From: an uncultured Gemmatimonadales bacterium
GTDB taxonomy: Bacteria; Gemmatimonadota; Gemmatimonadetes; Gemmatimonadales; GWC2-71-9
DNA length: 64,000 nt
Direction of reading: 5' to 3'
NCBI GenBank assembly: GCA_963771275.1
Contig: CAVYSW010000003.1
Coordinates: forward strand, 1,376,001-1,440,000
Below the pieces are notes generated by a model. That model did no database searches. It was not told where the DNA came from and saw nothing but the letters and a program-made list of their open reading frames with translations. Positions 2,861 to 28,011 of this stretch are shown piece by piece. The first letter of the stretch is position 1. Each line of letters starts with the position of its first letter. Made by a program: the position numbers and the translations under genes.

Positions 2861-2924
2861 CGGACTCCTCCTCAGCCTGGCCATCCGCGCGCCTCGGGGC
2901 GCCGGAGAGGCCCACGTGGGCGGT

Positions 2925-3317: not shown

Positions 3318-3321
3318 GGCA

Positions 3322-4551: not shown

Positions 4552-4639
4552 CGTCGTTCCCTCGTTGAGGCGTGCGGTTGTGGTGTCCGACGTATGCTTC
4601 ACGACTCGCCCCGGTGGGCGGGTCAACGGTCCGAGTTCT

Positions 4640-5917: not shown

Positions 5918-5930
5918 CCTCGGCACACTC

Positions 5931-8177: not shown

Positions 8178-8181
8178 GGTG

Positions 8182-10590: not shown

Positions 10591-10687
10591 CGGGATCCTC
10601 AATCGGTCAACCGTCGGCCGCGGCACTGCGGCATGCGCAGACATGCACTCCTCGGATCGGGTCGGTTGGCCGGTGATACCGTCCTGC

Positions 10688-10719
10688 GATCCTGGGGGCC
10701 GCAGACGGCCCCCAGGATC
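10688..10719 (-). terminator. Perfect 14-bp GC stem-loop just downstream of aprA
   Basis: GATCCTGGGGGCCG-caga-CGGCCCCCAGGATC, 13 nt past the aprA stop; no U-tract. Confidence 0.6.
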
Positions 10720-10732
10720 CCTGCCGTGACCC

Positions 10733-12625
10733 TTAGGCGGTGATTCGCTTCACGGGCCGCTTCTTCATCTCCCACTTGCCAGTGTCCTTGTGATAGATGC
10801 AGTTGCAGAAGGCGAGCCAGTTCTTGTTGTCGATGTTCGGCTTGTCGGCGCGGAAGTAGTAGCCCGGCCAACGGGTCTCCTCACGGAACAGGATGGAGCG
10901 CATGTGGGCGTCCGCCTGATACATCCGGTGGACGTTCTCCCAGCACCGCATCAGCTCGTGCAGGTTCTCCGCCGCGAGGTTGGCGGCGTCTTCCTTCAGG
11001 AAGGCCAGCAGCTCCAGGCCCCGCTCGATGAGCTTGTCGCTCGTCTTGAACTGGCTCGACACCCCACCCGCGTACTCGTCCATCAGCTTCTGCAGCCGAT
11101 ACATGAACTGCTGGGGGCGGATGTAGTTGGGGTTGATGTCGGGGTCGGTCGTCGCCCCTTTGTGCTTCGCGAAGGTCTCGATCGGCTGCAGGATTTCCTT
11201 CGTGAGCGCGTCGACCTGCGCCTGGTCGACCTTGGGCGGCCCCTTGTGGTCGACGATGTAGGAGATGGCCGCCTTCGCCGCGATCCGGCCTTCGGCGTGC
11301 GACCCGGACGAGAACTTGTGACTCGAGGCGCCCGACGCGTCGCCCGCCGCGAACATGCCCTGGACGGTCGTCATGTGCGGGTAGCCCCAGAAGTACTCGT
11401 CGCGCGTGGCGGGCGTCTGCAGATCCGCGGGCCCGGACACCCACGCGCCAGAGGCGCCGGAGTGCGAGCCGATGAAGTACGGATCGCACGCCATGATCTC
11501 AGACGGCTTCTTCTCGGGCTCGGTGTTGGTCGCGGCCCAGAGAATCGCCTGCGAGATCGTCATGTCGAGGAAGTCCTCCCAAGCCTCGGCCTCCAGCTCC
11601 TTCAGCTTCTTCTTGGCTTCCTTCTCGTCCGGTATCTGCTCCGCGATCTTCTTGATCGCGTCGGCCGTCTGCATGTAGATCGGCGACTTGCCGTCCATCA
11701 CGTCCAGCATCATCAGCCAGTTGCGGATGTTGGCCGGCGCCGGCTTCACCTTGGCGTACGGCTCCCACTTGTCGAGCTCGGCGGCGTTGTCCTTCATGTA
11801 GTTGCCGCCCTGCGCGTTGGTGGCGAGCGCCTTGAACAGCAGGAACCACGCGCCCACCGGGCCGTACGCGTCCTTGAACCGCACCGGGATGAAGCGCACT
11901 TCCTGACAGGTCATCTCGGCGCCGCCGTAGATCGTGAAGAAGGCACTGGCGCCGGAGTTGAACGGGGGATACCAGGAGCGGCCGAAGCCCTCGCCGGTGG
12001 AGCGGGGCTTGAACACGTGCACGGCGCCGCCCATGGCGACCAGGGTCGCCTTGGCCTTGAACACGTACACCTTGTTCTCGCGGACGCTGAAGCCGATCGC
12101 GCCGACGCACTTGTCGCCGTCGACCAGCGGGTGGGTGATGAACACCCGCTCGAAGTACTGCCCGTTCGCTTCCTTCAGGGCGTTCTTGGCCGCCTCGGCG
12201 ACGATGATCTTGTACGATTCGCCGTTGATCATCAGCTGCCAGCGTCCCTCGTGGACGTAGTTGCCGTCCTTGTCCTTCCAGATCGGCAGACCCCACTTTT
12301 CGAACAGGTGCACGGTCGAATCCACGTGGCGCGCGATGTCCGCCACGAGGTCCTCACGGGTGATGCCCATGAGGTCGTTGCGCACGTAGTCGACGTAGTC
12401 CTTCAGGGTGTTGTTGCCGCTGTTGAGGTCGACGTACTGGTTGATGGCCGAGAGCCCCATGGCCACCGCGCCCGAGCGGTCCATTGCCGCCTTGTCGACC
12501 AGAGTGACCTTGAGACCGTGTTGCTTGGCCCAATACGACGCTTCCACGGCTGCGCCGCAGGCCGCCATCCCGCCGCCGCAGATCAGCAGGTCGGTCTCAA
12601 CCGTTACGGTTTCGAAAGCCGCCAT
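10733..12625 (-). CDS. aprA: Adenylylsulfate (APS) reductase alpha subunit
   Basis: 630 aa; GGGMAACG, RSGAVAMGLSAIN, WQLMINGESYK, HKFSSGSHAEGR, FREETRWPGYY motifs. Confidence 0.98.
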   Translation of the reverse strand: MAAFETVTVETDLLICGGGMAACGAAVEASYWAKQHGLKVTLVDKAAMDRSGAVAMGLSAINQYVDLNSGNNTLKDYVDYVRNDLMGITREDLVADIARHVDSTVHLFEKWGLPIWKDKDGNYVHEGRWQLMINGESYKIIVAEAAKNALKEANGQYFERVFITHPLVDGDKCVGAIGFSVRENKVYVFKAKATLVAMGGAVHVFKPRSTGEGFGRSWYPPFNSGASAFFTIYGGAEMTCQEVRFIPVRFKDAYGPVGAWFLLFKALATNAQGGNYMKDNAAELDKWEPYAKVKPAPANIRNWLMMLDVMDGKSPIYMQTADAIKKIAEQIPDEKEAKKKLKELEAEAWEDFLDMTISQAILWAATNTEPEKKPSEIMACDPYFIGSHSGASGAWVSGPADLQTPATRDEYFWGYPHMTTVQGMFAAGDASGASSHKFSSGSHAEGRIAAKAAISYIVDHKGPPKVDQAQVDALTKEILQPIETFAKHKGATTDPDINPNYIRPQQFMYRLQKLMDEYAGGVSSQFKTSDKLIERGLELLAFLKEDAANLAAENLHELMRCWENVHRMYQADAHMRSILFREETRWPGYYFRADKPNIDNKNWLAFCNCIYHKDTGKWEMKKRPVKRITA

Positions 12626-12694
12626 TTTCGCATCTCCTCGAGGATTCCCTCGGCCGAAGCCAGTAGATCCGGTATGTCGTCGATGTCCGGCCGC

Positions 12695-13162
12695 CTACAG
12701 CGTCACGGCCTTGGCGATCTTGACCTTGCCCCGCTCGGTGTTCAGGCCGGCCGGCTCGCACATCAGCGTCGGGCTCTTCAGGTCGGCATCCCCGGTGGGA
12801 TAGTGGCTGAACGGCTGCGCTTTGCCTTCAGCGACGCCCCGGCGGTGCGGGAACTTGAACCGCTTCGGCTTGATGTCTTTGCTGCGGAACTGGAGGGTCC
12901 ACATGATGTCTTCGGAGCTGCGCATTGCCGTGACGCTCGCGCCCATCGGCACGAAATCGGCGTAGCCGCGTACCTCGATCGCCTGCGTCGGGCAGATCTT
13001 CACGCAGCTGTAGCACTCCCAGCACATCCAGGGATCCTGGTTGTACGCCTTCATGGTGCCCTTGTCGAGCACCATGAGGTCGTTCGGACAAATGTACTGG
13101 CAAGCGGTCTTGTCGAGCGCTTTGCAGCCATCACACTTGTCCGGGTTCACGAAGGTCGGCAT
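12695..13162 (-). CDS. aprB: APS reductase beta subunit
   Basis: 155 aa; CDGCKALDKTACQYICPNDLM and CWECYSCVKICP ferredoxin motifs. Confidence 0.97.
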   Translation of the reverse strand: MPTFVNPDKCDGCKALDKTACQYICPNDLMVLDKGTMKAYNQDPWMCWECYSCVKICPTQAIEVRGYADFVPMGASVTAMRSSEDIMWTLQFRSKDIKPKRFKFPHRRGVAEGKAQPFSHYPTGDADLKSPTLMCEPAGLNTERGKVKIAKAVTL

Positions 13163-13344
13163 GACTTGTTTCCTTTCTGTCCAGATCAGGCGTTCCCGGG
13201 AACTAGGCCTTCTCTCCGATACCTACCAGCCCGCAGCGGCGACCTCTCGCCAGAGGCGCCGCACGGTAGCCGCATCCATCGCCGCATCTCCACTCCCCTG
13301 CTGCGCGACTGTCATCGTACCCGTCCATAGCCGACTGTCACACT

Positions 13345-13362
13345 CCGAGATATTTATCACGA
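13345..13362. promoter_or_regulatory. Candidate Rex operator downstream of the aprB promoter
   Basis: Minus strand TCGTGA-TAAATA-TCTCGG resembles TTGTGAA-N4-TTCACAA; AT-rich core in high-GC DNA. Confidence 0.55.
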
Positions 13363-13376
13363 TTCACCTCACGGGA

Positions 13377-13404
13377 ATCTTGCCGCCCGTGCCCGGCGCG
13401 TCAA
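13377..13404 (-). promoter_or_regulatory. Candidate sigma70 promoter for the aprBA-qmo-sat-dsr cluster
   Basis: Minus strand TTGACG-N16-CAAGAT, about 215 bp upstream of aprB. Confidence 0.55.
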
Positions 13405-13411
13405 GGCCTAA

Positions 13412-13429
13412 GTGCGATTCCTGTCACGA
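13412..13429. promoter_or_regulatory. Candidate Rex operator just upstream of the aprB -35
   Basis: Minus strand TCGTGA-CAGGAA-TCGCAC pseudo-palindrome. Confidence 0.55.
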
Positions 13430-14152
13430 TTCGGAGATTATTGCAATCCGTCTTCTCCCGTTTCGCGCGCGCGGAGCTCCGGGAGGAGGGTGGCGCCGGA
13501 CGGGCACGGGAGCCGCAAGAGATGCCGCACCGTGCCGGCGGAGGTGGTGGGTGATCTCCGACAGACCGAGGGAAATGTGCTCGTTGCGCACCAGCACGCC
13601 GGACGGCACCACCGGGTGCGCGGGGGCGAAATTCCAGATGACCCGGACGCCGGCATCGGCGAGACGGTCGATGACCCGCTGGGCGGCGTCGGCGGGCGTC
13701 GTGACGACGGCGAGCGGGATGTGGTGGCTCTTGATGAACGCGCTGAGCGCGCGCATCGGTCGCACGGGGCACCCGTTGATACGCCGGCCGATCTTGCGCG
13801 GGTCGGTGTCGAACGCCGCGAGAAAGTGCAGGCCGTAGCGGGTGAACCGGCGATACGCCAGGATAGCCGAGCCGAGGTGGCCGGCGCCCACGAGCACCGC
13901 GTCATGTTGGCGGTCGAAGCCAAGCTCTTGCTGCACGGCCAGGCAGACCTCGTCCACCTCGAAGCCCACCCGTCCCTTGCCGAGCAGACCGATCGCCCCG
14001 AAATCCTTGCGGACCTGCGTCGGGTCGATGTCGAGCGCCTCGGCGATGCGGCCGCTGGTGACCGTGCGGCCCTGGTCCCGCACGGGGGACTCGGACAGGA
14101 GCAGGTAGTACCGCATCAGGCGTTCGAGCGCCAATTGGCTGAGATGCGCCAT
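13424..14152 (-). CDS. rex: Redox-sensing transcriptional repressor Rex
   Basis: Likely start MAHLSQLALERL; winged helix with QVRKDF and GKGRVGF; Rossmann GAGHLG; IWNFAP. Confidence 0.93.
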   Translation of the reverse strand: MAHLSQLALERLMRYYLLLSESPVRDQGRTVTSGRIAEALDIDPTQVRKDFGAIGLLGKGRVGFEVDEVCLAVQQELGFDRQHDAVLVGAGHLGSAILAYRRFTRYGLHFLAAFDTDPRKIGRRINGCPVRPMRALSAFIKSHHIPLAVVTTPADAAQRVIDRLADAGVRVIWNFAPAHPVVPSGVLVRNEHISLGLSEITHHLRRHGAASLAAPVPVRRHPPPGAPRARNGRRRIAIISES

Positions 14153-14193
14153 CGGTCCCCCTTGGCCGCCGCGAGCACCCCCCTGCGGAGTAT

Positions 14194-14252
14194 TCGCGAT
14201 TTTTGTCACACTTTCACTACCGGCATTCTAGCAGCGGGCCGCGGCGCGTCAA
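14194..14252 (-). promoter_or_regulatory. rex promoter (extended -10) with downstream Rex-like operator
   Basis: Minus strand TTGACG(14252-14247)-N16-TAGAAT(14230-14225) with TGn; operator-like TCGCGA-TTTTTG-TCACAC at 14194-14211. Confidence 0.65.
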
Positions 14253-15522: not shown

Positions 15523-16923
15523 ATGGCGAGCCAGCACAGCTCGCCGGGTCAAGGGGGCGGGATGGAGCCGGAGAGCGAAGCCAAGTTCTTCCAGACGGTG
15601 CTGCGCTGCGTGGCCGACGGGGTCTTCACGATCGACCGCGAGTGGCGCATCACGTCGTTCAACAAGGCCGCGGAGCGCATCACTGGCGTGCCAGCCAGGC
15701 AGGCGATCGGGAAGAAGTGCGCCGACGTCTTTCATGCGGACATCTGCGAGGACAACTGCGCGATCCGCGAGACGCTGACCACGAAGCGTGAGGTCATCGA
15801 TCGGTCGGCCAGGATCCTCAACTCGGCGGGCCGGGCCGTCCCGATCAGCGTCAGCACCGGCGTGCTGCGGCGGGATGGCGGGGAGATCCTCGGCGCCGTC
15901 GAGACCTTCCGCGACCTGTCGGCCATGGAGCAGCTGCGCCGCGAGATCGACTGCAAGTACACGATCGAGGACATCATCGGCAAGAGCGAGGCGTTCCAGA
16001 AGATCTTCGCCATCCTGCCGGACATCGCCGAGAGCGAGAGCACGGTGCTGCTCGAAGGACCGAGCGGCTCGGGTAAGGAGCTCCTCGCGCGGGCGATTCA
16101 CAACCTGAGCCCGCGGCGCAAGCAACCCTACGTCGTCGTGAACTGCGGCACGCTGCCGGCCAACCTGGTCGAGTCCGAGCTGTTCGGCTACAGGCAGGGC
16201 GCGTTCACCGATGCCAAGACGAACAAGCCGGGCCGCATCGCCCTGGCCGAGGGCGGCACCGTCTTCTTCGACGAGATCGGGGAGCTGCCCCCCGAAACGC
16301 AGGTGAAGCTGCTCCGGCTGCTGCAGGAACGCGAGTTCGAGCCGCTTGGCGGCGTGAAGCCGCAGAAGGCCGACGTCCGCGTCGTCGCGGCGACGAACAG
16401 GAGGCTGGCCGAGCTCGTGAGCCGAGGGCTGTTCCGGGACGATCTCTACTTCCGTGTGGCCGTGGTACGTCTCACCATTCCGCCGCTGGCGGCGCGGCGC
16501 GAGGACATTCCGTATCTGGTCGATCACTTCATCGAGCGGTTCAACGCCAAGCGCGGGAAGAAGATCCAGGGCGTCACCTCCGCGGTGATGGAGATCCTCA
16601 TGCGGCACGAGTTTCCCGGGAACGTGCGGGAGCTCGAGAACCTGATCGAGTACGGGTTCGCCCTGTGCCACAATGGGCTGATCGACACGTGTCATCTGCC
16701 CGAGGAGCTGAGGCCCACGGGGCGCGCCGTCCCCTGCGGACACGCCCCCGCGGCGAGCATCTCCCCCTTGCAGCGCGCGGAGGCGGAGGCCGTCCGAGCC
16801 GCCCTGAGTCACAATGCGGGCCACCTGGGCCGCTCGGCCGTGGAGCTCGGCGTGAGCCGCGCCACCCTGTGGCGCAAGATGACCCGGTACGGGATCGTCG
16901 CGGAGGCGTTCCGCGACGGCTGA
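15523..16923 (+). CDS. Sigma54-dependent activator (PAS-AAA+-HTH), OrpR-like
   Basis: PAS with C-x8-C-x3-C (KCADVFHADICEDNC), Walker A GPSGSGKE, ESELFGYRQGAFTDA, C-terminal LGVSRATLWRK HTH; start may be 15562. Confidence 0.92.
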   Translation: MASQHSSPGQGGGMEPESEAKFFQTVLRCVADGVFTIDREWRITSFNKAAERITGVPARQAIGKKCADVFHADICEDNCAIRETLTTKREVIDRSARILNSAGRAVPISVSTGVLRRDGGEILGAVETFRDLSAMEQLRREIDCKYTIEDIIGKSEAFQKIFAILPDIAESESTVLLEGPSGSGKELLARAIHNLSPRRKQPYVVVNCGTLPANLVESELFGYRQGAFTDAKTNKPGRIALAEGGTVFFDEIGELPPETQVKLLRLLQEREFEPLGGVKPQKADVRVVAATNRRLAELVSRGLFRDDLYFRVAVVRLTIPPLAARREDIPYLVDHFIERFNAKRGKKIQGVTSAVMEILMRHEFPGNVRELENLIEYGFALCHNGLIDTCHLPEELRPTGRAVPCGHAPAASISPLQRAEAEAVRAALSHNAGHLGRSAVELGVSRATLWRKMTRYGIVAEAFRDG

Positions 16924-17066: not shown

Positions 17067-17081
17067 TGGCGCGCTACCTGC
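17067..17081 (+). promoter_or_regulatory. Sigma54 (-24/-12) promoter
   Basis: TGGCGCG-CTAC-CTGC matches TGGCACG-N4-TTGC spacing, 27 nt upstream of the next start; IHF-like TAACACGTTG at ~17029-17038. Confidence 0.65.
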
Positions 17082-17107: not shown

Positions 17108-17494
17108 GTGAGAGTCGCCATTCCGCGTCTCGGAGAGTCGGTCGCGCCGTGCTTCGGGCACTGCTCCATCATGGCAGTGTTCACGGTGGAGAGCGGTCGG
17201 GTGATCGACCAGATCGACTTTCGCCTCCAGAGCCGCGAGCCGTTCGACCGCGTGCGGCTGCTCCGCGACCAACAGGTCGACACGATCATCTGCGGCGGGG
17301 TGCAGGATGTGTACGAGGCCTCGCTGCGCGCCAACGGCATCCGGGTCATCTCGTGGGTTTCCGGCAGCGTCAACGATCTGCTGGCGTTGTTCGTCCGGGG
17401 CCAGCTGGTGCCCGGGACCGTGACCGGCCGTCGCTCGGCCTACGAGGGGCCGGACCATCCGAAAGGAAGCCACATCGGTGGGCACAAGGGATAA
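17108..17494 (+). CDS. NifB/NifX (dinitrogenase FeMo-co / Orange-protein-like) family protein
   Basis: MRVAIP...VAPCFGHC...VDTIICGG...LRANGIRV; GGGGAGG RBS before GTG. Confidence 0.85.
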   Translation: MRVAIPRLGESVAPCFGHCSIMAVFTVESGRVIDQIDFRLQSREPFDRVRLLRDQQVDTIICGGVQDVYEASLRANGIRVISWVSGSVNDLLALFVRGQLVPGTVTGRRSAYEGPDHPKGSHIGGHKG

Positions 17495-18884
17495 GTACAG
17501 CTACTACGTCGAGCCGCGGACGCTCGAGGTCACGGAGCGGGCGCGGAAGTTTCTCGAGGCGTTCGCCGCGGTGCTGGACGCGGGCAACTACGGCCTCGCG
17601 CTCGACACCTATGCGCGGTTGAGCGCGAAGTGCGCGCGGTGTGCGGTCTCCTGCCAGCTCTACGAGACGACGCATGCGGCGCGTGACATTCCCTGCCGCC
17701 GCTCCGATCTGCTGCTGCGCGTGTATCGTCGCTACTTCACGCCGGCCGGGATCGCCCGGGCGAGGCTGTTCGGCGGGTTCACCCTCACGGACCGGTATCT
17801 CGATGTGATGGCCGAGGAGTACTACCGCTGCACGGCGTGCCGGCGGTGCGCGGCCACCTGCCCGGTCGGCATCGACCACGGCCTGGTCACCCACCTCGCG
17901 CGCTGGCTGCTGGCCGAGATCGACGTGATCCCCAAAGCGCTGGTGGTCGCCGTGCGGGAGCAGCTGCAGGGCGTGGGGAACACGTCGGCGATTCCGGTCC
18001 CCGCCCTCAAGGACACGTGCGAGTTCCTGGAGGAGGAGTTCCGCGACATCTACCACGTCGACGTCAAGTTCCCGATGGATGTCGAGGGGGCGGAGTACGT
18101 GTTCTTCCCGGCGGTGTCGGACTACCTGCTCGAGGCGGACACGCTGATGGGTAACGCGGCCGTGCTGCACGTGACGGGCAGCTCGTGGACCATCGGCACG
18201 GGCAACTACGACGGCATCAACTACGGCCTGTTCTACAGCGACCGGATGATGGAGCGCATTGTGCGCAACGTGGTCGCGGAGGTCCACCGGCTCAAGGGCC
18301 GCAAAGTCCTGGTGGGCGAGTGCGGCCACGCGACGCGCAGCGCCTGGTACATCCCGGCGTTCGGCGGCGCGGACCCGCCCCCGGTCGTGAACTGTCTCCA
18401 GTACACGTGCCAGATGCTGGAGGCGGGCCGGATTCCGCTGAAGCCGGAGAAGATCGCAGAGCGGGTGACGTATCACGACCCGTGCAACATCGCCCGCAGC
18501 GGGCGGATCACCGAGGAGCCCAGAGAGATCCTCAAGGCCATCTGCAGCGACTTCGTCGACATGACGCCGAACCGGACCCGGAACTACTGCTGTGGTGGTG
18601 GGGGCGGCACGGTGTCGATCGACGAGATCCGCGCGTTCCGCACGGGCCTCATGGGCAAGCGCAAGGCCGACCAGATCCGCGCCACGGGGGCGAAGGTTGT
18701 CGTCTCCCCCTGCGCCAACTGCAAGAAGCAGCTCCGCGAAGTCTGCCAGGACAACGGGCTGGAAGACGTCGAAGTTCTCGGCCTGCACGATCTGCTGCTG
18801 CGCGTGATCGACTTCGGCGTGGCCGGGCCGCCCGCCGAGCCGGCGGGCGAGGGCGCGCGCAGCTGCGCGGGGCCGGCAACCTGA
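17478..18884 (+). CDS. HmcF/DsrK-like HdrD-family Fe-S protein
   Basis: 468 aa; CTACRRCAATCP, VGECGHA, YHDPCNIAR...YCCGGGGG...SPCANC CCG domain. Confidence 0.88.
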   Translation: MGTRDKYSYYVEPRTLEVTERARKFLEAFAAVLDAGNYGLALDTYARLSAKCARCAVSCQLYETTHAARDIPCRRSDLLLRVYRRYFTPAGIARARLFGGFTLTDRYLDVMAEEYYRCTACRRCAATCPVGIDHGLVTHLARWLLAEIDVIPKALVVAVREQLQGVGNTSAIPVPALKDTCEFLEEEFRDIYHVDVKFPMDVEGAEYVFFPAVSDYLLEADTLMGNAAVLHVTGSSWTIGTGNYDGINYGLFYSDRMMERIVRNVVAEVHRLKGRKVLVGECGHATRSAWYIPAFGGADPPPVVNCLQYTCQMLEAGRIPLKPEKIAERVTYHDPCNIARSGRITEEPREILKAICSDFVDMTPNRTRNYCCGGGGGTVSIDEIRAFRTGLMGKRKADQIRATGAKVVVSPCANCKKQLREVCQDNGLEDVEVLGLHDLLLRVIDFGVAGPPAEPAGEGARSCAGPAT

Positions 18885-18902
18885 CAAGAAGGAGCGTGGG
18901 AC

Positions 18903-19604
18903 GTGGAAGGCTGGATCGCATTCGCTCGTGGGCCGATGTTCCGGGCTGCCCTGGTGTTCATGGTGCTGGGGCTGGTGCGCCACGCCGTGATGACCATCTG
19001 GGAGATGCGACGAATCGTGCGCCGGGCGGGTGACAAGACGATTCCGTATCGCAAGGTGCTGATCGCGACGGTGAAGTGGCTGCTTCCGGTGGGGAAGATC
19101 CACCAGCGCCTGCCGTACAGCCTGACGACGCTGGTCTTCCACGTCTCGGTCGTCATCGTGCCGCTCTTCCTCGCCGGGCACATCGCCCTCTGGGCGGCGG
19201 GGACCGGCGTGTCGTGGCCGGCCATCTCGAACGGCCTCGCGGACATTCTGACGATCGCCGCGGTCGTGACCGCCCTGCTGCTCGTGGTGGAGCGGGCGGC
19301 CGCGGCCGACTCCCGGGTGTTGAGCCGGTTTCAGGACTATGTCATCCCGCTCCTGATCGCCGTGCCGTTCGCCTCCGGGTTTCTCGTCCGGCATCCGGCG
19401 TGGAATCCGTTGCCGCTCGATGCGGCGCTTCTCGTGCACGTCGTGAGCGCGAACTTCCTGCTCATCCTGATTCCCCTGACCAAGCTCAGTCACATGATCC
19501 TGATGCCGGCCACCCCGTTGGTGTCCGAGCTGGCATGGCACTTCCCGCCGGACGCCGGACAGCGGGTCGGCGTCGCGCTCGGCAAAGCGGAGCAACCGAT
19601 ATGA
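18903..19604 (+). CDS. HmcE/DsrM-like NarI-family membrane cytochrome b
   Basis: 233 aa, ~5 TM helices, four His (FHV, GHI, VHV, TKLSHM). Confidence 0.82.
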   Translation: MEGWIAFARGPMFRAALVFMVLGLVRHAVMTIWEMRRIVRRAGDKTIPYRKVLIATVKWLLPVGKIHQRLPYSLTTLVFHVSVVIVPLFLAGHIALWAAGTGVSWPAISNGLADILTIAAVVTALLLVVERAAAADSRVLSRFQDYVIPLLIAVPFASGFLVRHPAWNPLPLDAALLVHVVSANFLLILIPLTKLSHMILMPATPLVSELAWHFPPDAGQRVGVALGKAEQPI

Positions 19605-20383
19605 CCGAACGTGTGGCCATCCTGACCGACACGACGCGCTGCACCGGATGCGACAAGTGCGTGGTCGCGTGCAAGGAGAAGAACAAGCTGGGTGAGGACC
19701 ACGCGTGGCGCTGGCAGGGAGCCGTGGATGACCTGTCGTCGTCGCGCCTGTGCACGATCATCCGGCGCCCCGGGGGGCACTTCATCCGCCAGCAGTGCCG
19801 GCACTGCCTCGAGCCGGCGTGCGTCAGCGCCTGTCTGGTGGGCGCGCTGCAGCAGACGCCCGAGGGCGCGGTCGTGTACGACAGCGACCGCTGCATGGGC
19901 TGCCGCTACTGCCTGGTGGCGTGTCCCTACGGGATCCCGCGCTACGAGTGGCAGGATGCGGTGCCGCACGTGCGCAAGTGCACGCTCTGTGCGGACCGGA
20001 TCGCGGAGGGCAAGATCCCGGCGTGTGTCGAGGCGTGTCCGGAGAAGGCGACGATCTTCGGCACCCGGGAGGAGCTGCTCGCCGAGGCGCACCATCGGCT
20101 CGCCGCCCATCCCGCGCGCTACGTGCAGCGGGTGTTCGGCGAGCACGAGGTCGGCGGCACGTCCGTGCTGTACATCTCGGATCTGCCGCTCGACTTCCTG
20201 GGCTGGCAGCCCGACCTGGGTCCGCGGCCGCTGCCGGAGCGCTCGTGGGCATCGCTGCACAAGGTGCCGCCGCTCATGCTCGCCGTCGGAGGCCTGATGA
20301 GCGGCGTGTACTGGGTGATCGGGCGGCGCATGAAGCTGGCGTCGGAACGGGACGCCGCGCCGCGCGAGGCGGACGATGAATAG
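19601..20383 (+). CDS. HmcB/HybA-like 4x[4Fe-4S] protein with C-terminal TM anchor
   Basis: ATGA overlap at 19601; DTTRCTGCDKCVVAC, CRHCLEPACVSAC, CMGCRYCLVACP, CTLC...CVEACP; GEHEVGGTSVLY. Confidence 0.9.
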   Translation: MTERVAILTDTTRCTGCDKCVVACKEKNKLGEDHAWRWQGAVDDLSSSRLCTIIRRPGGHFIRQQCRHCLEPACVSACLVGALQQTPEGAVVYDSDRCMGCRYCLVACPYGIPRYEWQDAVPHVRKCTLCADRIAEGKIPACVEACPEKATIFGTREELLAEAHHRLAAHPARYVQRVFGEHEVGGTSVLYISDLPLDFLGWQPDLGPRPLPERSWASLHKVPPLMLAVGGLMSGVYWVIGRRMKLASERDAAPREADDE

Positions 20384-22401
20384 ACGCCTGGTCGTCCTCA
20401 AGACGGCGCTCTGGGGTCTGGTGGGGGTGCTGGCCGCCGTGACGGTCGTTCGCTTCACGCGCGGTCTGGGAGCGGTCACCGACCTGTCCGACGCCGCGCC
20501 CTGGGGTCTGTGGATCGGCTTCGACGTGATGGCCGGCGTGGCCCTGGCCGCCGGCGGGTTCGTGCTGGCGGGCACGGTGTACATCTTCGGACTGGAGCGG
20601 TACCGGTCCTTCGTCCGGCCGGCGATCCTCACGGCGTTCCTGGGCTATGTGGCCGTGGCGGTCGGGACTGCTGTACGATCTCGGCCTGCCGTGGCACATC
20701 TGGCACCCGCTGATCTACTGGCAGTACCACTCCGTACTGTTCGAAGTCGCGGCCTGCGTGATGTGTTACCTGACGGTGCTCACGCTGGAATTCGCGCCGG
20801 TCGTGCTGGAGCACCCGTGGTTCGCGCGGCCGGCGTTCCGGAAGGTGTTGGGCGGCTTGAAGCGGATCACGATCGGCCTGGTGATCGCGGGGATCGTTCT
20901 CTCGACCCTGCACCAGTCGTCGCTCGGCTCACTGTTCCTCATCACCCCCTATCGACTCCACCCGCTGTGGTACAGCCCGATCATCTACGTGCTGTTCTTC
21001 GTGTCGGCGGTGGGGTTGGGGCTCATGACGGTCGTGCTGGAATCGCTGCTGGCGGCGGTGTTCCTGGGGCACAAGGTGCACGTGAAGCTGCTCGCCGGGC
21101 TCGGCAAGGCGGCGGCCGTGGTGCTCGGTCTCTACACCGTGTTGCGGTTGGGTGACCTGGCGGTGCGTGGGGTGCTGCCGTCGGTGCTGGACGGCTCGTG
21201 GCAGAGCGCGCTGTTCGTCTTCGAGCTCGGGATCAGCGCCATGATCCCCGCCGGCCTGCTGCTGCTGCCGCGGGTCCGCGCGAGCGTGGCGGGGCTGGCC
21301 GTGTGCGCCGGCATGACCGTCGCCGGCATGGTGCTGAACCGGGTCGACGTCTGCATGGTGGCGTTCGCGCGGCCGCAAAACATGGGCTACTTCCCGCGCT
21401 GGATGGAGTTCGCCGTCAGCGTGGGTATCGTCGCGGCCGCCGTGCTGGCGTTCGTCTTCTTCGTCGAGCGCTTCCGGGTCTACCTGGACGAAGACGCTCC
21501 CCAGCCCCACGCGGAGCCGTCGTTCCATCCCGCGGCGCTGCGGAACCTGCTCCCGTCCAGGCTGGCCGCGCCGCGCCGGTTCTCGCTGGCGGCCATCTCG
21601 GGCGCCGCCGCGGCGGTGCTGTTCCTGCCGGGCCAGGCGTTCACGGGCGCGGTGCCCACCCGCACCCCGGCGCTGGCCCCACGCACGGTCGAGGCCACCG
21701 CGGTGACGGGGGCCCGTGGTGAGCGCCGCAAGCTGCTGCTGGCGGGACACCCGGGAGTGCCGGGGGACGGCCGCCAGGTGCGGGTGCTGATGATCGACGG
21801 CAACCGGAACGGCGACGCCGTGCTGTTCGACCACGACAACCACATCGAGCGGCTGCATGGCGATGCGTCGTGCAAGGCGTGCCATCATCTCAATCTGCCG
21901 CTCGACGACGACGCGCCCTGCTACGCCTGTCACCGCGACATGTACGAGCCGACATCGCCGTTCGACCACGCGCTCCACGTGCAGGAGTTGCGCGGCAATG
22001 CGGGCTGCGGCAAGTGCCACAAGGACCCCGCCGCCGCAAAGACTCTCGAGGCGGCCGCCCCGTGCGCCGAGTGTCACAAGGACCTGGTGGTTGCGGGGTC
22101 CAGAATCGCGGCGCCGCACGACGTGTGGCGGCCGGCGGCCGGCTACGTGGCGGCGATGCATGGGCTGTGCGTCAAGTGTCATGAGGAGAACGTCCGCGAG
22201 CGGCCAGCGGACACGCCGCAGCACCTGGAGCGCTGCGACACGTGTCATGACGCGGACCGCGGTGTGGATCTGGAGCGCATGAGGCCGGACAACGCCAGGC
22301 TGCGCGACGGGCGGGGTGCCCGTACCGGCGGGAGCCGGGGCGGTGACGAGGTTCGAGGCGCGGCGACGGCCGCCGGGCCACGGCCCGACGGGAAAGGGTG
22401 A
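20376..22401 (+). CDS. HmcC/HybB (NrfD family) membrane protein fused to a hexaheme cytochrome c domain; one +1 frameshift near 20665
   Basis: N-part PWGLWIGFDV...GYVAVAVG joins GLLYDLGLPW...SVLFEVAAC...LSTLHQSSLGSL in another frame (gtcGGGactg); six CxxCH motifs at the C-terminus. Confidence 0.85.
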
Positions 22402-23543
22402 ACATGCCAACCGCGATTGACACGTGGCTGCGCGCGCACCTGTTCGACGAGGTGCCGGTCAGCATCTGCGTGATCGACCGGGACTTTCGGATCGTCAGGG
22501 CGAACCGCCGGTTTTGCAGCGAGTACGGACCGTGCGACGGCCGGCGGTGCTACGAGGCCTACAAAGGCCGGCACAGCCGCTGCGACCAGTGCGCCGCGGT
22601 GAAGACGTTCGACGACGGGAAGATCCGCAGCCGTGAGGAGGAAGGCAGCGTCCGTGACGGGAGCCCGGCCCACTACATGGTGCACATGGTACCCATCGCG
22701 CGGCCCGATGGGAGCATCCCGTACGTCATCGAGATGTCCACCGACATCACGTCGGTCAAGCGACTCGAGCGGGAGAAGCGGGAGGCCGAGCGGCTGGCGG
22801 CCGTCGGCGAGACCGTCGCGGGCCTCGCGCACGGGATCAAGAACGTGCTGATGGGCTTGGAAGGCGGCATGTACGCGGTCAACACGGGCATCCAGCGAGC
22901 GGATGACGAGCGGATCGCCCAGGGCTGGCTCATGCTGGAGGAGAACATCGCGCGGATCTCGGAGTTCACGCAGGAGTTTCTCGATTTCGCCAAAGGCCGG
23001 CCGGCGGACGTGGCGCTGGTGGATCCCAACAGTCCCGCGCGGAAGGTCGCGGAGCTGTTCCGGGAGAAAGCGGCGAAAATGGGGATCACGCTGCACACCG
23101 AGCTGGGGGACGGGATCGCGCCCGCGCCGCTGGACGCGGACGGGATTCACACGTGCCTGGCGAACCTGGTGTCGAACGCGCTCGACGCGTGCCGGGCGAG
23201 CGACAAGGACCGCGCCTACACGGTGACGCTGACGTCCCGGGATGCGGACAGCGTGCTGGTCTACGAGGTGTCCGACAACGGCCGCGGCATGGACTATGAG
23301 GTGAGCCGCAAGGTATTCGCGCGGTTCTTCACGACGAAGGGATCACACCGGGGTGTCGGGCTGGGACTGCTCACCACCCGGAAGATCGTCGATCAGCACG
23401 GCGGCCGTGTATCCTTCACCTCCAAGGAGGGGGAGGGCTCCCGGTTCCGCATCGAGCTTCCCCGGGACAGGCTGCCGCGGCCCACCGAGCAGGCGGCGTC
23501 GCTTCAGCCGGCAGCGAACGACGACGCTCACGCGAGGCGCTGA
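22398..23543 (+). CDS. PAS-domain sensor histidine kinase
   Basis: Cys-rich PAS (CYEAYKGRHSRCDQC), H-box AHGIKN, N-box NLVSNALDA, DNGRG, FFTTK, GVGLGL. Confidence 0.93.
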   Translation: MNMPTAIDTWLRAHLFDEVPVSICVIDRDFRIVRANRRFCSEYGPCDGRRCYEAYKGRHSRCDQCAAVKTFDDGKIRSREEEGSVRDGSPAHYMVHMVPIARPDGSIPYVIEMSTDITSVKRLEREKREAERLAAVGETVAGLAHGIKNVLMGLEGGMYAVNTGIQRADDERIAQGWLMLEENIARISEFTQEFLDFAKGRPADVALVDPNSPARKVAELFREKAAKMGITLHTELGDGIAPAPLDADGIHTCLANLVSNALDACRASDKDRAYTVTLTSRDADSVLVYEVSDNGRGMDYEVSRKVFARFFTTKGSHRGVGLGLLTTRKIVDQHGGRVSFTSKEGEGSRFRIELPRDRLPRPTEQAASLQPAANDDAHARR

Positions 23544-23547
23544 GATC

Positions 23548-24093
23548 ATGGTGCAAGCCCAGGACAAGACCGTACTCGTGGTCGACGACGAGCCGAACGT
23601 CCGGAGCTACCTGGCGCAGATTCTCAAGGACGCGGGGTTCACCGTCGTGACGGCGGCCGATGGTGACGAGGCGCTGGAGCTGATCCGCAGCCGGCCGCCG
23701 GACTTCATCTCGCTGGACCTGGTGATGCCGCGGAAGAGCGGGCGCCGGCTGCTGTACGAGCTGCGGAAGGACCGGCACCTGGCCCAGATCCCCGTCCTCA
23801 TCGTCACCGCCCACGCGCAGGATGACCTGGGCCGGTCCGACATGGACGATCTCATGCAGGGCAAGGTGCTGTCCGGGACGGGCGTGTACCTGGAGAAGCC
23901 GGTGAAGCCGCTGGACTACGTGCGCATCGTCCAATCGGCGCTGGGCATCGCGGAGGCCGACCACACGGTCGACCGGATCAGTCTCAAGGAAGAGCTGGAG
24001 CGGCAGATCCAGGGGGCGGAGCCGCACGCGCTGCGCCGTGCCCTCGAGATCCTCAAGAAGAAACCGCGGCCCGACGCCACCGATCAGCAGTGA
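23548..24093 (+). CDS. Response regulator receiver protein
   Basis: Start MVQAQDKTVLVVDDE; LDLVMP phospho-Asp; EKP; short helical tail, no DNA-binding domain. Confidence 0.9.
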   Translation: MVQAQDKTVLVVDDEPNVRSYLAQILKDAGFTVVTAADGDEALELIRSRPPDFISLDLVMPRKSGRRLLYELRKDRHLAQIPVLIVTAHAQDDLGRSDMDDLMQGKVLSGTGVYLEKPVKPLDYVRIVQSALGIAEADHTVDRISLKEELERQIQGAEPHALRRALEILKKKPRPDATDQQ

Positions 24094-24119
24094 GCGGGAC
24101 CGCTCAAGGAGGCCTGTCC

Positions 24120-24551
24120 ATGTCGACCGCCGGCGGAAGCAACGGCAAGAAGAAGATCCTCATCGTGGAGGACGAGCCCGACGTCGTGGCGTATCTCGAG
24201 ATGCTGCTGCGTGACGCCGGGTACGCCACGGTGTCGGCCCGGGACGGGCTCGAGGGCTTGAAGCTGGCGCGGCGGGAGAAGCCCGATCTCGTGACGCTGG
24301 ACATCGTGATGCCCGAGACCACCGGCGCGCGCTTCTACAAGGAGATCCGGAGCGATCCGGAGCTCGCCAAGATCCCGGTGGTTATCGTCACCGCGGTCCG
24401 AGGATACGCCGGCGATCCGTACGGCTACGAGAAGTTCATCAGCAAGCGGCACTCGGTGCCGCCGCCGGATGGCTTCTTCCCCAAGCCGATCGACAAGGAC
24501 GCGTTTCTCGAGGCGGTGCGAAAGCTGGTCTCGCGCGCGGCTGTGAGTTAG
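24120..24551 (+). CDS. Single-domain response regulator
   Basis: ILIVEDE, PDLVTLDIVMP, PKP; AAGGAGG RBS before ATG 24120. Confidence 0.9.
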   Translation: MSTAGGSNGKKKILIVEDEPDVVAYLEMLLRDAGYATVSARDGLEGLKLARREKPDLVTLDIVMPETTGARFYKEIRSDPELAKIPVVIVTAVRGYAGDPYGYEKFISKRHSVPPPDGFFPKPIDKDAFLEAVRKLVSRAAVS

Positions 24552-24620
24552 CCACCCCACAGTGCTTCCGCCGAAACCGCGGTTTTGGCTGGGGGTACGT
24601 ACTTGGGGAGGAGTGGTGAC

Positions 24621-25118
24621 ATGGTTCATCGCTTGGTGGGCTGCGCGTGGCTGGTGGCCGTTGGGCTTGGCGTGCTGGCTGCCGCGCCCGTCCAACGGCA
24701 GGCGCAGCTGGTCGGGCAGGAGTCGCCCCAACCGTGCCGGCTTCCGCGCTCCGTCATACCGGCCGTCCCCGAGAAGATGCCCATACCGGATTCCATCTGG
24801 GCCGAGATCAACGCGCCGGAGAACATCGTACACGACGATTCGGTCGTGGCTGGGCCCTACCCGCGCGACTTGATCGTCCTCTGGTTTCGTGACGAGGCCA
24901 CGCAGGCCGAGCGGCAAGGTGCCGTGGATCTCATCGGTGCCCAACTTATTGGGAGTGCTCCCATGCGTCCGGGTGGGCCTTACTTCTTGCGCATCTGCCA
25001 CGACGGCACCACGGGACCGCTTCACGCGGCCATCAGGCGGCTGCGGGCGCTTCCGGGAGTCGCGGCCGTCACCACGCTCCCCCCGCCGCTGAGCCCGGCG
25101 GCCCACCCAGAGCGCTGA
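24621..25118 (+). CDS. Secreted hypothetical protein (paralog 1), subtilisin-prodomain-like
   Basis: GGAGGAG RBS, signal-peptide-like N-terminus, strong similarity to the next ORF. Confidence 0.7.
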   Translation: MVHRLVGCAWLVAVGLGVLAAAPVQRQAQLVGQESPQPCRLPRSVIPAVPEKMPIPDSIWAEINAPENIVHDDSVVAGPYPRDLIVLWFRDEATQAERQGAVDLIGAQLIGSAPMRPGGPYFLRICHDGTTGPLHAAIRRLRALPGVAAVTTLPPPLSPAAHPER

Positions 25119-25141
25119 CCGGGGTTGGGGCAGGCGGTACG

Positions 25142-25642
25142 ATGCCTGTAGGAGAATCCCAGGTAGCACCTGCCTCCACGATGGGTCCGTGGTCTGCAAT
25201 CGTTGCGCTTGCCTTGTTGGTGAACGCGCCTTTCCTGCACGCAGCGCGGTTGGTGGGTCAAGAGTCGCCCAAACCCTGCCGGCTTCCGCACTCTGTCGTT
25301 TCCGCACCGCCTGACAGCTTTTCGGCCGAAGTCGCCAAAGAAGTCTACGCTCCGGAGAACATCGTCTGGGTTGATTCGATCATGACCGGCCCGTATCCGC
25401 GTGACATGATCTGGCTCTGGTTCTATGACGACACGCCATACGCCGACCGGCAGGCGGCCATTGACTCGATCGGCGGGACGGTAGTAGGCGGCTACCCGTT
25501 CCGGCCGGGTGGTGCCTACTACGTGCGCATTTGCCACGACGGAACCGCTGGGCCGCTGCACCGGGCGATTCGACGGCTGCAGGCCCTTCCCGGAGTCCGG
25601 CTGGCCACGCCAGACCTTGAGATGGCCCTGCGTCCGACGTAG
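25142..25642 (+). CDS. Secreted hypothetical protein (paralog 2)
   Basis: Shares LVGQESPxPCRLP, APENIV, GPYPRD, RICHDGTxGPLHxAIRRLxALPGV with paralog 1; start may be 25181. Confidence 0.7.
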   Translation: MPVGESQVAPASTMGPWSAIVALALLVNAPFLHAARLVGQESPKPCRLPHSVVSAPPDSFSAEVAKEVYAPENIVWVDSIMTGPYPRDMIWLWFYDDTPYADRQAAIDSIGGTVVGGYPFRPGGAYYVRICHDGTAGPLHRAIRRLQALPGVRLATPDLEMALRPT

Positions 25643-25685: not shown

Positions 25686-26576
25686 CTAGCCCGCTTCCCC
25701 AAGCTCCGCCAGCAGTCGCCGCGCGAGTCGCACTCCGACATCGTCGGGGTCCGGGCCCTCCTCGGTGCCTTGGACGTCGCGGGTCTGGTCGTCACTGAAC
25801 AGGCGCCCCCGCAGGGCCACGAGATCGGCACGCAGCGTCGCCAGCGCCCCGACTGGCGCGTGACAGCCTGCGTTGATCTCGCGGAGCAGGGCCCGCTCGG
25901 CGGTCACGGTCCGGCGGGTGGTCGGGTCGTCGATCGCCGCGACGAGGCCGGCGACCTCACTCCCTGCCCGCGCCTGCACCGCCAGCGCTCCCTGCGCCGG
26001 CGCCGGCAGGAACCGCTCGAGTGGGAGATCGATCCGATGGGGGTGATCGATGCCCAGGCGGTTGAGCCCCGCGGCCGCGAGGATCACGCCGTCCAGGCCC
26101 TCCCGTTCCAGCTTGGCAATCCGCGTGGGCACGTTGCCCCGGATGGGCACGATCTCCACCTTGCACAGCCGCTTGATCTGCGCGGCGCGGCGCGGGCTGT
26201 TGGTGCCGATGCGGGCGCCGGCCGGGAGGTCTTCCAGCCTCCTCGCGCCGCGGGTGAGCAGCACGTCGTGCGGCGCCTCCCGGAGCGGGATCGCGGCGAT
26301 TGCGAGACCGTCGGTAGGCGCGGTCGGCAGGTCCTTGTAGCTGTGCACCGCCACGTCGATCCGCCGCTCGAGCAAGGCCTGCTCCAGCGCGGTCACGAAG
26401 GCGCCCTCGGGCCAGGCGGGACCGAACGGCTGGTCCGGCACTCGATCGCCGTGAGTCTTGATGATCACCTGCTCGACGGCGAGCGACGGGTGCGCCTCAC
26501 GCAGCCGATCGCACACCCAGCCGGTCTGCCGGAGCGCCAGGTCGCTGCCGCGCGTGCCGACCCGGACGGCCGTCAC
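25686..26576 (-). CDS. hemC: Hydroxymethylbilane synthase
   Basis: GTRGSDLALRQ, DVAVHSYKDLP, IRGNVPTR, PAPAQGAL, GCHAPVG. Confidence 0.95.
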   Translation of the reverse strand: MTAVRVGTRGSDLALRQTGWVCDRLREAHPSLAVEQVIIKTHGDRVPDQPFGPAWPEGAFVTALEQALLERRIDVAVHSYKDLPTAPTDGLAIAAIPLREAPHDVLLTRGARRLEDLPAGARIGTNSPRRAAQIKRLCKVEIVPIRGNVPTRIAKLEREGLDGVILAAAGLNRLGIDHPHRIDLPLERFLPAPAQGALAVQARAGSEVAGLVAAIDDPTTRRTVTAERALLREINAGCHAPVGALATLRADLVALRGRLFSDDQTRDVQGTEEGPDPDDVGVRLARRLLAELGEAG

Positions 26577-27879
26577 GCGCTCGCCTGGCGGAACGCCTCA
26601 CCGGCCGCGTCGATCACGTGCGCGATCGCCTGGTCGTCATGGGCGGCGGAGACGAACATGGCCTCGTAGGAGGAGGGTGGGAGCCACACGCCGCGGTCGA
26701 GCATCGCCCGGAAGAACCGCGCGAACAGGGCGTGATCGCACGCCTGGGCGTCGGCGAAGTTCACCACGGGGCGGTCGAGCAGGGCCATGCCCAGCATGCC
26801 GCCCGTCGCACCGGCCTGGAGCGCAACCCCCGCGGCCGCCGCCGCGCGCCGCAGTCCGTCCGTGAGCTGCACGGCGCGGCTCTCCAGCGTCCGGTAGAAA
26901 CCTTCGGCGCGGCACAGGGTCAGGGTGGCGATCCCGGCCGCCATGCCCAGCGGATTGCCGCTCAGGGTCCCTGCCTGATACACCGGTCCCGAGGGGCTCA
27001 CCCGCTCCATCAAGGCTCTGGGGCCCCCAAAGGCCGCGACCGGCATGCCGCCGCCGATCACCTTGCCGAGGCAGGTGAGGTCGGGGCGCACGCCGCAGAC
27101 GTTCTGATAGCCGCCCCAGGCCACCCGGAACCCGGTCATCACCTCGTCGAACACGAGCAGGCTCCCGTGCCGATCGCACAGCGCGCGGAGCCCCTCGAGG
27201 AACCCGTCCAGCGGCTCGACGTAGCCCATGTTGCCTGCAATCGGCTCCACCAGGATGGCGGCGATCTCGGTCCCGTGCCGGTCCATGATGCGCCGCCATC
27301 GCCGGCAGGTCGTTGAACGGCGCCAGCATGCGTCTCGGCGGCGTAGGCCGCCGGCACGCCGGCCGAGTCGGGGACGCCGAACGTAGCGGCGCCCGAGCCC
27401 GCGGCCACCAACAGGCCGTCGACGTGCCCGTGGTAACACCCGATGAACTTCAAGACCTTGGTTCGGCCGGTCGCAGCGCGGACCAGCCGGACGGCGCTCA
27501 TCGTGGCCTCCGTGCCGCTGTTCACGAACCGCACCACCTCGATCGACGGGAGCGCCGCGACGATCAGCTCCGCCAGCTCGGCCTCGGCCGCGCAGCACGC
27601 GCCGAAGCTCAAGCCGCGCGCGGCGGCGTCGGCCACCGCGCGGACCACCGCGGGGTGGGCGTGGCCCACGACCGCCGTGCCCCAGCTCCCGACCAGATCC
27701 ACGTAGCGCGCGCCGTCCACATCACAGACGTAGGCGCCTTCCATGCGATCGACGAAGACCGGGCGGCCCCCCACCGCGCGGAACGCGCGGACCGGGCTGT
27801 TGACACCGCCCACCAGCACGCGGCACGCGCGCTCGAAAAGCGCGGCGGAGCGGGGTCGGGCGCCGGGGCGTTCGGTCAT
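26573..27879 (-). CDS. hemL: Glutamate-1-semialdehyde 2,1-aminomutase, with two +1 frameshifts near 27296-27330
   Basis: [26 protein letters not shown] in one frame; LAPFNDL in a second; [27 protein letters not shown] in a third; joined length 435 codons. Confidence 0.9.
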
Positions 27880-28011
27880 GTCTTCCTGGGATCCTCCGAC
27901 CCATAATGTAGTGCGTCGTTGGGAGGGCGGCCGCGCCGGTGGACCCTTCCTCGAACATCCGCGTAGCACTGTGCGTACACGAATCAGGCCCAAGCCCAGC
28001 AGAGCGACGAC

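Follow-up and report, generated by a model that had tools for sequence, protein, structure and literature searches.

An NrfD–hexaheme cytochrome fusion in an Hmc-like F-E-B-C operon beside the dsr genes of an uncultured Gemmatimonadales bacterium

The closest described systems are the membrane redox complexes Hmc, Nhc, Tmc and DsrMKJOP. Tmc has a separate tetraheme TmcA and a TmcD, and is not known to include an NrfD module. What the Hmc-type complexes do, and in which direction they run, is still called uncertain (PMC6303296), and one CCG motif together with GECGH is a signature common to DsrK, HmcF and TmcB (PMC10861901). We analyzed a four-gene operon, F-E-B-C, in a 64,000-nucleotide stretch of DNA (the window) from an uncultured Gemmatimonadales bacterium (assembly GCA_963771275.1, contig CAVYSW010000003.1, positions 1,376,001 to 1,440,000). 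A first-pass annotation of the window had described a rearranged, minimal Hmc-like complex, in which the NrfD subunit runs on into a hexaheme cytochrome. The gene order that it gave was borne out. All four genes lie on the forward strand and are tightly packed, with small gaps or overlaps (the F–E gap is 18 nt):

17478-18884, + strand: F, a cytoplasmic iron–sulfur (Fe-S) protein of the HmcF/TmcB/DsrK type, with GECGH and one complete CCG motif
18903-19604, + strand: E, a membrane cytochrome b of the HmcE/TmcC type (NarI-like)
19601-20383, + strand: B, a four-cluster Fe-S protein of the HmcB/HybA type, with a C-terminal anchor helix and without a twin-arginine translocation (Tat) signal
20376-22401, + strand: C, whole gene, an NrfD-family quinone subunit followed by helix 11 and a hexaheme domain

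The six CxxCH motifs of C (CKACH, CYACH, CGKCH, CAECH, CVKCH and CDTCH, starting at 21871, 21919, 22006, 22063, 22168 and 22234) were found exactly as claimed. The motifs FDHDNH, FDHALH and AMHG are also present and their histidines are conserved. Elsewhere in the window, only four further CxxCH motifs occur in the six frames, all of them single. The extra hydrophobic helix after helix 10 is seen both in hydropathy and in the structure model. Inspection of the frame found no stop between the NrfD body and the CxxCH motifs. The NrfD body and the six motifs are indeed in one frame, but a frameshift after codon 97 had been overlooked. C is made up as follows:

20376-20666, + strand: codons 1-97 of C, with helices 1-3; HmcC model positions 13-92; the start resembles that of the intact homolog P0002
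20667, + strand: extra base that shifts the frame of C; absent from the near-identical contigs X1 and X2
20668-21500, + strand: remainder of the ten-helix quinone subunit; HmcC model positions 94-370
21571-21636, + strand: basic PRRFSL stretch and eleventh membrane helix (model helix 394-415; hydropathy; conservation)
21655-22296, + strand: β-strand linker and class III (c3-type) hexaheme domain (Pfam Cytochrom_CIII; six CxxCH and six distal histidines)

The gene is split over two frames, with codons 1-97 read from 20376 and the rest from 20668 to 22401, by one extra base near 20667 that sits at a run of G. Without the frameshift, C has 674 codons. The extra base is most likely an assembly error. 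The X1 contig spans the whole 3001-nt stretch in one piece without it (20 substitutions, 1 gap), the X2 contig also lacks it, and in X4, a less closely related contig, one base is missing at 20663. It is improbable that the gene is truly broken in the source organism, a pseudogene whatever the rest of the family does. In favor of a broken gene, none of 76 control genes was truly frameshifted (one was flagged and is explained by paralogs), hence indels are uncommon in this assembly, and among 61 gene bins matched by neighbors of related loci C was the sole gene flagged. The comparison also used contigs rather than raw reads, and X1 or X2 could be related to the source. Against a pseudogene stand the near-identical contigs from two studies that lack the base, the position of the base at a G run, and the intactness of every ligand of C. 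In addition, hemL in the same window is likewise frameshifted; this hemL-like aminotransferase gene (26573-27900, − strand) has Aminotran_3 positions 10-157 and 178-385 in separate open reading frames (ORFs). The fusion itself as an assembly artifact was ruled out by homologous intact fusions and by the contigs without the extra base.

A search with the C-terminal part of C returned 67 proteins. Of these, 61 are at least 600 amino acids long, nearly all with NrfD and class III cytochrome domains, and the six CxxCH motifs are invariant in all 61. In databases such homologs carry names such as ‘HybB-like’ or hydrogenase cytochrome b. A scan of GTDB species genomes gave 201 loci, of which the best 80 were kept. 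By title they come mostly from Gemmatimonadota and Planctomycetota, and also from Latescibacterota, Acidobacteriota, Myxococcota and one ‘Thermodesulfobacteriota’. Six CxxCH motifs are present in 80/80; 71 loci hold intact fusions, 4 were flagged as broken and 5 run off the contig. The order F-E-B-C is kept in 52 of the 52 loci where all four genes are visible. These searches show a conserved family and not an accident. A profile search of representatives at 50% identity found 205 at E ≤ 1e-30. Among the best 150 representatives, 81 also match over an N-terminal membrane region, 12 begin close to helix 11 and 57 match the domain only. Many of these 57 look N-truncated, some are three-helix short forms and two are unrelated giant multihemes. 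No stand-alone hexaheme cytochrome was shown among the best 150, and a few have one N-terminal helix (e.g., P0156). Five-helix forms of 370-440 amino acids with 5-6 CxxCH motifs and without the NrfD core were also observed (P0132, P0135, P0137, P0140, P0144, P0163 and P0165). A second, diverged F-E-B-C operon occurs in some of the same genomes, sometimes near the first (L009, L097:7361-9337, L052:13199-15986); this paralog has about 35% identity in the heme domain. Apparent longer fusions of 960 amino acids in L055 and L056 were rejected; they arise from upstream open shadow frames.

The structure model of C has ten helices and an eleventh, followed by β strands and the heme domain. The full-length model had low confidence in the heme domain, hence the domain was folded alone (predicted local distance difference test, pLDDT, 88.5). 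It matches Pfam PF02085 with 46 bits against a cut-off of 22.9. In structural comparison, the top 12 VIA rows are all c3, c7, HmcA, NhcA or c7-repeat; the best match has a Z of 7.0, which is middling alone, and a root-mean-square deviation of 3.1 with 94 aligned. Foldseek gave no match to the domain model at E ≤ 0.001. A whole c3 fold is spread over domain residues 42-200, and the modeled domain reads as a tetraheme c3 frame with a two-heme insertion. Its 12 cysteines and 12 histidines are invariant in 80 sequences, including all six distal histidines (in the close alignment, five are invariant in 61/61 and one is present in 60/61). Because six conserved histidines lie outside the CxxCH motifs, one per heme, all six hemes are probably bis-His ligated, and they would be of low potential. 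The genome also encodes ccmE, ccmF and tatC.

In the C family, the mean numbers of lysine plus arginine per loop alternate between 1.8-4.8 (inside loops) and 0.0-1.3 (outside loops). The stretch right after helix 11 is also basic (3.5). The positive-inside pattern and the 11-helix model predict that the N terminus of C is inside and the cytochrome domain outside, in the periplasm, which supports the placement of the hemes in the first-pass annotation. We considered whether PRRFSL before helix 11 might be an internal Tat signal that carries B. This was unsupported: among the aligned sequences, both arginines are kept in 46 of the 61 close ones and in 23 of the 86 distant ones, serine or threonine rather than a hydrophobic residue occupies the +2 position, and helix 11 is not unusually weak.

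The membrane core of C has the NrfD fold (Pfam NrfD), with ActC/ActF as the top fold matches (E 1.5e-7) and PsrC also matched. The intact homolog P0002 scores 316/550 against the NCBIfam HmcC model (scores are given as bits/cut-off throughout). The residues of the quinone site and proton path of NhcC are tabulated in PMC8076601, and the corresponding QrcD residues are proposed in PMC6303296. Mapped by a constant offset of 18, all 14 match in C, where they are conserved in 59-61 of 61 sequences. Equivalents of QrcD D70, Y110, S138 and Y150, which are essential by mutagenesis (PMC13059093), are among them.

F scores below the cut-off in every family (DsrK 260/400, HmcF 202/750, TmcB 199/735). 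GECGH and a single CCG motif are invariant in 44/44 F sequences, and F carries the catalytic signature of DsrK, HmcF and TmcB, as expected of the DsrK-like subunit that had been proposed. The first ferredoxin motif (17622-17698 of the window) lacks its first cysteine; Ser49 is found there, and serine in 36/44. An extra cysteine, Cys73, is invariant in the 44 sequences and may substitute for the lost one; a [3Fe-4S] cluster or a ligand swap is possible. F also has a cysteine at a position where the genome's own DsrK has an aspartate. F forms its own clade (100/98), separate from the genome's DsrK and a second DsrK-like protein, in a tree of 43 rows. The tree comprised all distant rows and a quarter of the close F rows, drawn at random, with no true HmcF/TmcB references. 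Relatives have two or three DsrK-like paralogs beside the F-E-B-C operon, in separate clades. E is below the cut-off for TmcC (120/240) and HmcE (118/275). Its His80, His93, His179 and His197 are invariant in 53/53 sequences, as expected for a putative di-heme b protein. No DsrK/HmcF/TmcB or HmcE chain turned up when solved structures were searched by sequence.

B is likewise below the cut-off for HmcB (254/420, the match beginning at model position 35) and DsrO (107/200). Its 16 cluster cysteines are conserved, the tail helix is followed by RR in 64/71 sequences, and a tyrosine is present in 71/71 at what we mapped as the equivalent of QrcC Y113. The polarity of the tail indicates an N-out orientation. 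A Tat motif was found in none of 69 B proteins examined (11 further loci were not examinable), and only 11-24 codons separate the stop of E from the first cysteine of B in 68 measurable loci. The same motif test does flag three other NrfC-type proteins of this genome.

C(1-432) of P0002 was co-folded with E. The ipSAE was 0.49 against 0.00 for the best of three controls, with contact agreement of at least 84% and partner pLDDT of at least 77. Of 157 solved pairs, 116 reach the ipSAE mark, as do 2 of 215 mismatched ones, and values up to 0.60 include 18 solved pairs and both mismatches. The modeled pair mixed two organisms, and a likeness to DsrM-DsrP is possible; the model lends weak support to a C–E contact.

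The cassette tracks the dsr genes. Of 401 genomes in the phylum, 5 carry the fusion, each of them among the 8 that are dsr-positive, and none of the other 393 does; one of the dsr-positive genomes has only a dsrB-like match near a contig start. By host type, a dsr match was found for 42/52 F-type loci, 9/9 truncated kinase-linked loci and 0/19 F-less loci. The F-less subfamily comprises 19 Planctomycetota-titled loci (L053, L058, L071, L084 and 15 others) with divergent E, B and C-hexaheme, in which no F was found within the fetched DNA and no dsrA match in the 19 hosts. A cytochrome of about 850 amino acids with 23 CxxCH motifs lies downstream (one is cut by a contig end), and His80 of E is arginine in all 13 divergent E sequences aligned. 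This subfamily is a candidate extracellular electron-transfer module.

A second natural variant, P0079, represents a cluster of 26 members from several sources. Its matches to the family profile are confined to positions 1-42 and 340-645. The Fe-S domain of B and helices 2-9 of C are missing, and E, the B tail helix, three C helices and the cytochrome are retained. Two contigs carry a short C of this type:

L122:236-1465: short C, following E and a 49-amino-acid B remnant and preceding a kinase
L123:260-1489: short C in the same arrangement

The 49-amino-acid remnant consists of the start of B and its tail helix. At least eight other representatives have the three-helix form (P0151, P0153, P0164, P0185, P0190, P0191, P0214 and P0217). 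Because both halves of the quinone module are cleanly lost, the variant implies that the cytochrome has a use without this module, and it fits a putative cytochrome-to-E route that would need no quinone.

We tentatively read F-E-B-C, with a likelihood somewhat short of even, as a four-subunit inner-membrane redox complex of the Hmc/Nhc/Tmc/DsrMKJOP superfamily, controlled by sigma54 and auxiliary to DsrMKJOP in sulfite respirers. It would be a periplasm-fed conduit with three ports. The first would be a periplasmic six-heme wire, tethered to C by helix 11 in place of a free HmcA, NhcA or TmcA. The second would be a menaquinone site in C, reached through the four Fe-S clusters of B, and the third a cytoplasmic thiol/disulfide site in F, reached through the two b-type hemes of E. 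Electrons from periplasmic carriers would most likely enter the hexaheme domain. One branch would then lead through E to F, where DsrC-bound sulfur would be reduced. The other would lead through B and C to menaquinone, with protons drawn from the cytoplasm, and both branches would build proton-motive force. This periplasm-fed, two-exit flow is favored because C has a cytoplasm-facing proton path like that of quinone reducers and because the deletion variant needs no quinone. The serial chain of the first-pass annotation, from the periplasm through quinone to the cytoplasm, is unlikely to be the whole story, since the variant drops the quinone module and keeps the cytochrome and E. The second route to DsrC that it proposed stays a suggestion; DsrMKJOP and a further DsrMK-like pair are already encoded in the genome.

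Several observations weigh against the periplasm-fed conduit. With two further DsrK-like proteins encoded in the genome, DsrC does not depend on F. B lacks a Tat signal, and no Tat-bearing partner or carrier that could bring its clusters to the periplasmic quinone site was seen in the operon. The donor was sought with specific queries in the source genome (96.7% complete). They found one NiFe large subunit, in a cytoplasmic-looking cluster, and no periplasmic hydrogenase, no Tat-bearing formate dehydrogenase among three molybdopterin matches, and no small stand-alone c3 among four class III matches. No classical Hmc donor was found with these queries. The residues of the quinone site were mapped by offset and not by alignment to NhcC or QrcD sequences. 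A dsrA match is missing in 10/52 F-type hosts, and the co-occurrence counts come from hosts whose completeness is not given and which, where related, are not independent. Finally, the two contigs that carry the deletion variant, of 1.7 kb, show no F.

The same parts could work in other directions. F-E-B-C may be a self-contained quinol:DsrC oxidoreductase isofunctional with DsrMKJOP, in which quinol is oxidized at C, electrons pass from B through the hexaheme domain and E to F, and the cytochrome is no more than an internal bridge like DsrJ. The parts correspond one to one (F to K, E to M, B to O, C to P plus J), and the flow proposed for DsrMKJOP runs DsrP-DsrO-DsrJ-DsrM-DsrK (bioRxiv 10.64898/2026.08.25.746951). 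A fusion would suit such a bridge, and with the queries used neither a periplasmic hydrogenase nor a periplasmic formate dehydrogenase was found in the genome. However, C has a cytoplasmic proton path of the NhcC/QrcD/HybB type, whereas DsrP is described as releasing protons to the periplasm; given this path, the mode would be electroneutral by our charge count. The deletion variant also keeps the cytochrome without the quinone core, and c3-type hemes are usually far more negative than menaquinol. We consider this quinol-fed reading unlikely.

An outward flow, from cytoplasmic thiols or quinol through the hexaheme domain to acceptors in the periplasm or outside the cell, such as minerals, humics or partner cells, seems less probable still. 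For it speaks the F-less subfamily, where E-like, B and C-hexaheme proteins are joined to the 23-heme cytochrome in dsr-free Planctomycetota (19 loci), and the source genome has large multiheme clusters; Qrc and Hyd-2 can run in reverse (PMC6303296). The large cytochrome is, however, found in 0/52 F-type loci, and these sit within reductive-looking sulfur islands. We give even less weight to the view that the substrate of F is not DsrC but another disulfide or persulfide, in redox balancing or sulfur trafficking, and that the link to dsr reflects a shared lifestyle only. The separate clade of F below every family cut-off, the cysteine in place of the aspartate of DsrK, the altered first cluster motif and the 10/52 F-type hosts without a dsrA match speak for it, but the cassette is in 0/393 dsr-less genomes of the phylum and the dsr-free subfamily is also the F-less one.

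A broader reading, which we hold to be rather doubtful, is that F-E-B-C is a fifth, widespread member of the Hmc/Nhc/Tmc/DsrMKJOP family. It would be a modular switchboard on a scaffold of helices 1, 10 and 11 plus the hexaheme domain. Sulfite reducers would add E and F for DsrC, some lineages would delete the quinone module in-frame, and non-sulfur Planctomycetota would drop F, lose one heme ligand of E and add a 23-heme wire for outside exchange. B would enter the periplasm with neither a Tat signal nor a catalytic carrier, and, if true, this would be an undescribed export or co-export route. The cassette packs the entire circuit into four genes, and its natural deletion forms take the three ports apart, which allows a direct test of the route from cytochrome to reductase, through or around quinone. 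The cassette marks an energy module of uncultured sulfite reducers in Gemmatimonadota, Planctomycetota, Acidobacteriota, Myxococcota and others, and the signal-less B is a concrete protein-export puzzle. Database labels such as hydrogenase cytochrome b or HybB-like can inflate counts of hydrogenases.

The operon is surrounded by regulatory and sulfur genes:

15523-16923, + strand: PAS-sigma54 activator (Pfam Sigma54_activat, PAS, HTH_8), which precedes the cassette in many related loci
17067-17081, + strand: sigma54-type −24/−12 promoter-like site, a strict pattern match
17108-17494, + strand: small NifX/NifB-like protein (Nitro_FeMo-Co fold; Pfam PF02579; match to the MrpORP C terminus)
22398-23543, + strand: PAS histidine kinase (Pfam PAS_4, HATPase_c), whose start overlaps the stop of C
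23548-24093, + strand: single-domain response regulator 1 (Pfam Response_reg), conserved in related loci
24090-24551, + strand: single-domain response regulator 2 (Pfam Response_reg), conserved in related loci
1010-14209, − strand: neighboring sulfur genes dsrM, dsrC, sat, qmo-like genes, aprBA and rex

The PAS-sigma54 activator is likely the regulator of the operon. The promoter-like site was recognized by the sigma54 −24/−12 consensus. Of 38 upstream regions, among them the one in this window, 14 have the strict pattern (0.63 expected from shuffles), in most cases 40-51 nt ahead of the start. The NifX-like gene upstream of F is conserved across related loci and is a possible Fe-S accessory protein, and the PAS kinase directly follows C in most F-type loci. 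DsrMK had been noted nearby, which is correct and understated: the genome holds a complete dsrMKJOP, at the left edge of the window and just outside it, where dsrKJOP-dsrAB follow. The dsrC gene of the window encodes both C-terminal cysteines. A DsrD candidate after dsrB has no Pfam match, and the assignment to the reductive type therefore comes from the TIGR02064 match and the gene context alone. Two related tandem ORFs at 24585-25642 (− strand; 177 and 166 amino acids) have signal-like starts and the common pattern ‘CRLP...GPYPRD...ICHDGT’.

Other electron-transfer genes were observed in the source genome (G000). The further DsrMK-like pair lies at G000:C3:1347077-1349640, about 26 kb before the window. 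A multiheme cluster at G000:C3:270000-300500 (L095, L096) has ORFs with 4-21 CxxCH motifs, ccmEF, a Tat-bearing HybA-like protein and a HybB-like gene, and is a possible electron partner of the complex. A module of an octaheme cytochrome, a Tat Fe-S protein and an NrfD-like protein is found at G000:C3:682560-685381, and overlapping ORFs with 20 and 17 CxxCH motifs at C11:93089-97173. There is also an alternative complex III-like cluster. The identities in this set are partly read from motifs.

All parts of the F-E-B-C complex are already known. No description of the NrfD–hexaheme fusion was found in full-text literature searches, although subscription reviews and supplements could mention such operons, and the available parts of PMC10504309, PMC11492766 and PMC13490349 do not mention it. 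Compared with Hmc of Desulfovibrio (Nitratidesulfovibrio) vulgaris (HmcABCDEF), the window has homologs of B, C, E and F in one operon and a class III periplasmic part, and HmcB and HmcC are the best NCBIfam matches of B and C. It differs in that there is no separate 16-heme HmcA; the six heme sites are fused to C through an eleventh helix. B lacks the first 34 model positions, and B, C, E and F are all below the HmcB/C/E/F equivalog cut-offs. The periplasmic hydrogenase and the small, type I cytochrome c3 that feed Hmc were not found in the genome with the queries used.

HmcD is a small hydrophobic protein of about 47 amino acids. Its gene would not fit within the operon, given the 18-nt F–E gap and the overlaps, though no profile search for it was made, and helix 11 of C could stand in for it. 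No separate HmcA-like cytochrome was found in the window or in the 52 F-type loci, one of which has an ORF with three CxxCH motifs inside a dsrMK-led cluster. Of the first-pass claim that both are missing, the part on HmcA holds, and that on HmcD is suggested by the lack of intergenic room. The rearranged order itself is real but not new. The hmc locus of Thermodesulfovibrio has five genes, whose locus tags run F, HmcA, E, B, C, with E deduced from the range of tags (PMC5165239), which is a precedent for an F-first order without HmcD. What may be undescribed is the fusion.

With Nhc (NhcABCD), the system shares a ten-helix NrfD subunit with all 14 listed residues, a four-cluster Fe-S subunit and a class III cytochrome. 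The nine-heme NhcA is described as a protein of its own, and an E/F module is not among the listed parts of Nhc; the F-E-B-C operon has a fused, hexaheme cytochrome together with E and F. With respect to Tmc (TmcABCD), E and F match the TmcC and TmcB models below cut-off (120/240 and 199/735), no separate tetraheme gene is found in the operon, and the deletion variant, with E, anchor helices and cytochrome, looks Tmc-like. DsrMKJOP has the same five functional parts (K, M, J, O and P equivalents) and a single non-cubane site with GECGH. However, each subunit is of another lineage; C has no DsrP or DsrJ family match, and the genome encodes a separate DsrK, DsrJ and DsrP that score above their cut-offs. 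DsrJ is a triheme protein with a Cys/His heme, the genome's DsrO has a Tat signal, and the proton path of DsrP opens to the periplasm. Signal-less, tail-anchored Fe-S proteins that hitchhike on a Tat hydrogenase have been described (bioRxiv 10.1101/2023.11.02.564894). They resemble B in the C-terminal tail, the lack of a signal peptide and a HybB-like partner; their proposed carrier is a Tat-bearing upstream Fe-Fe hydrogenase, and none was seen at the F-E-B-C operon. By the features tested, the F-E-B-C complex is outside Hmc, Nhc, Tmc and DsrMKJOP, yet it would work like them.

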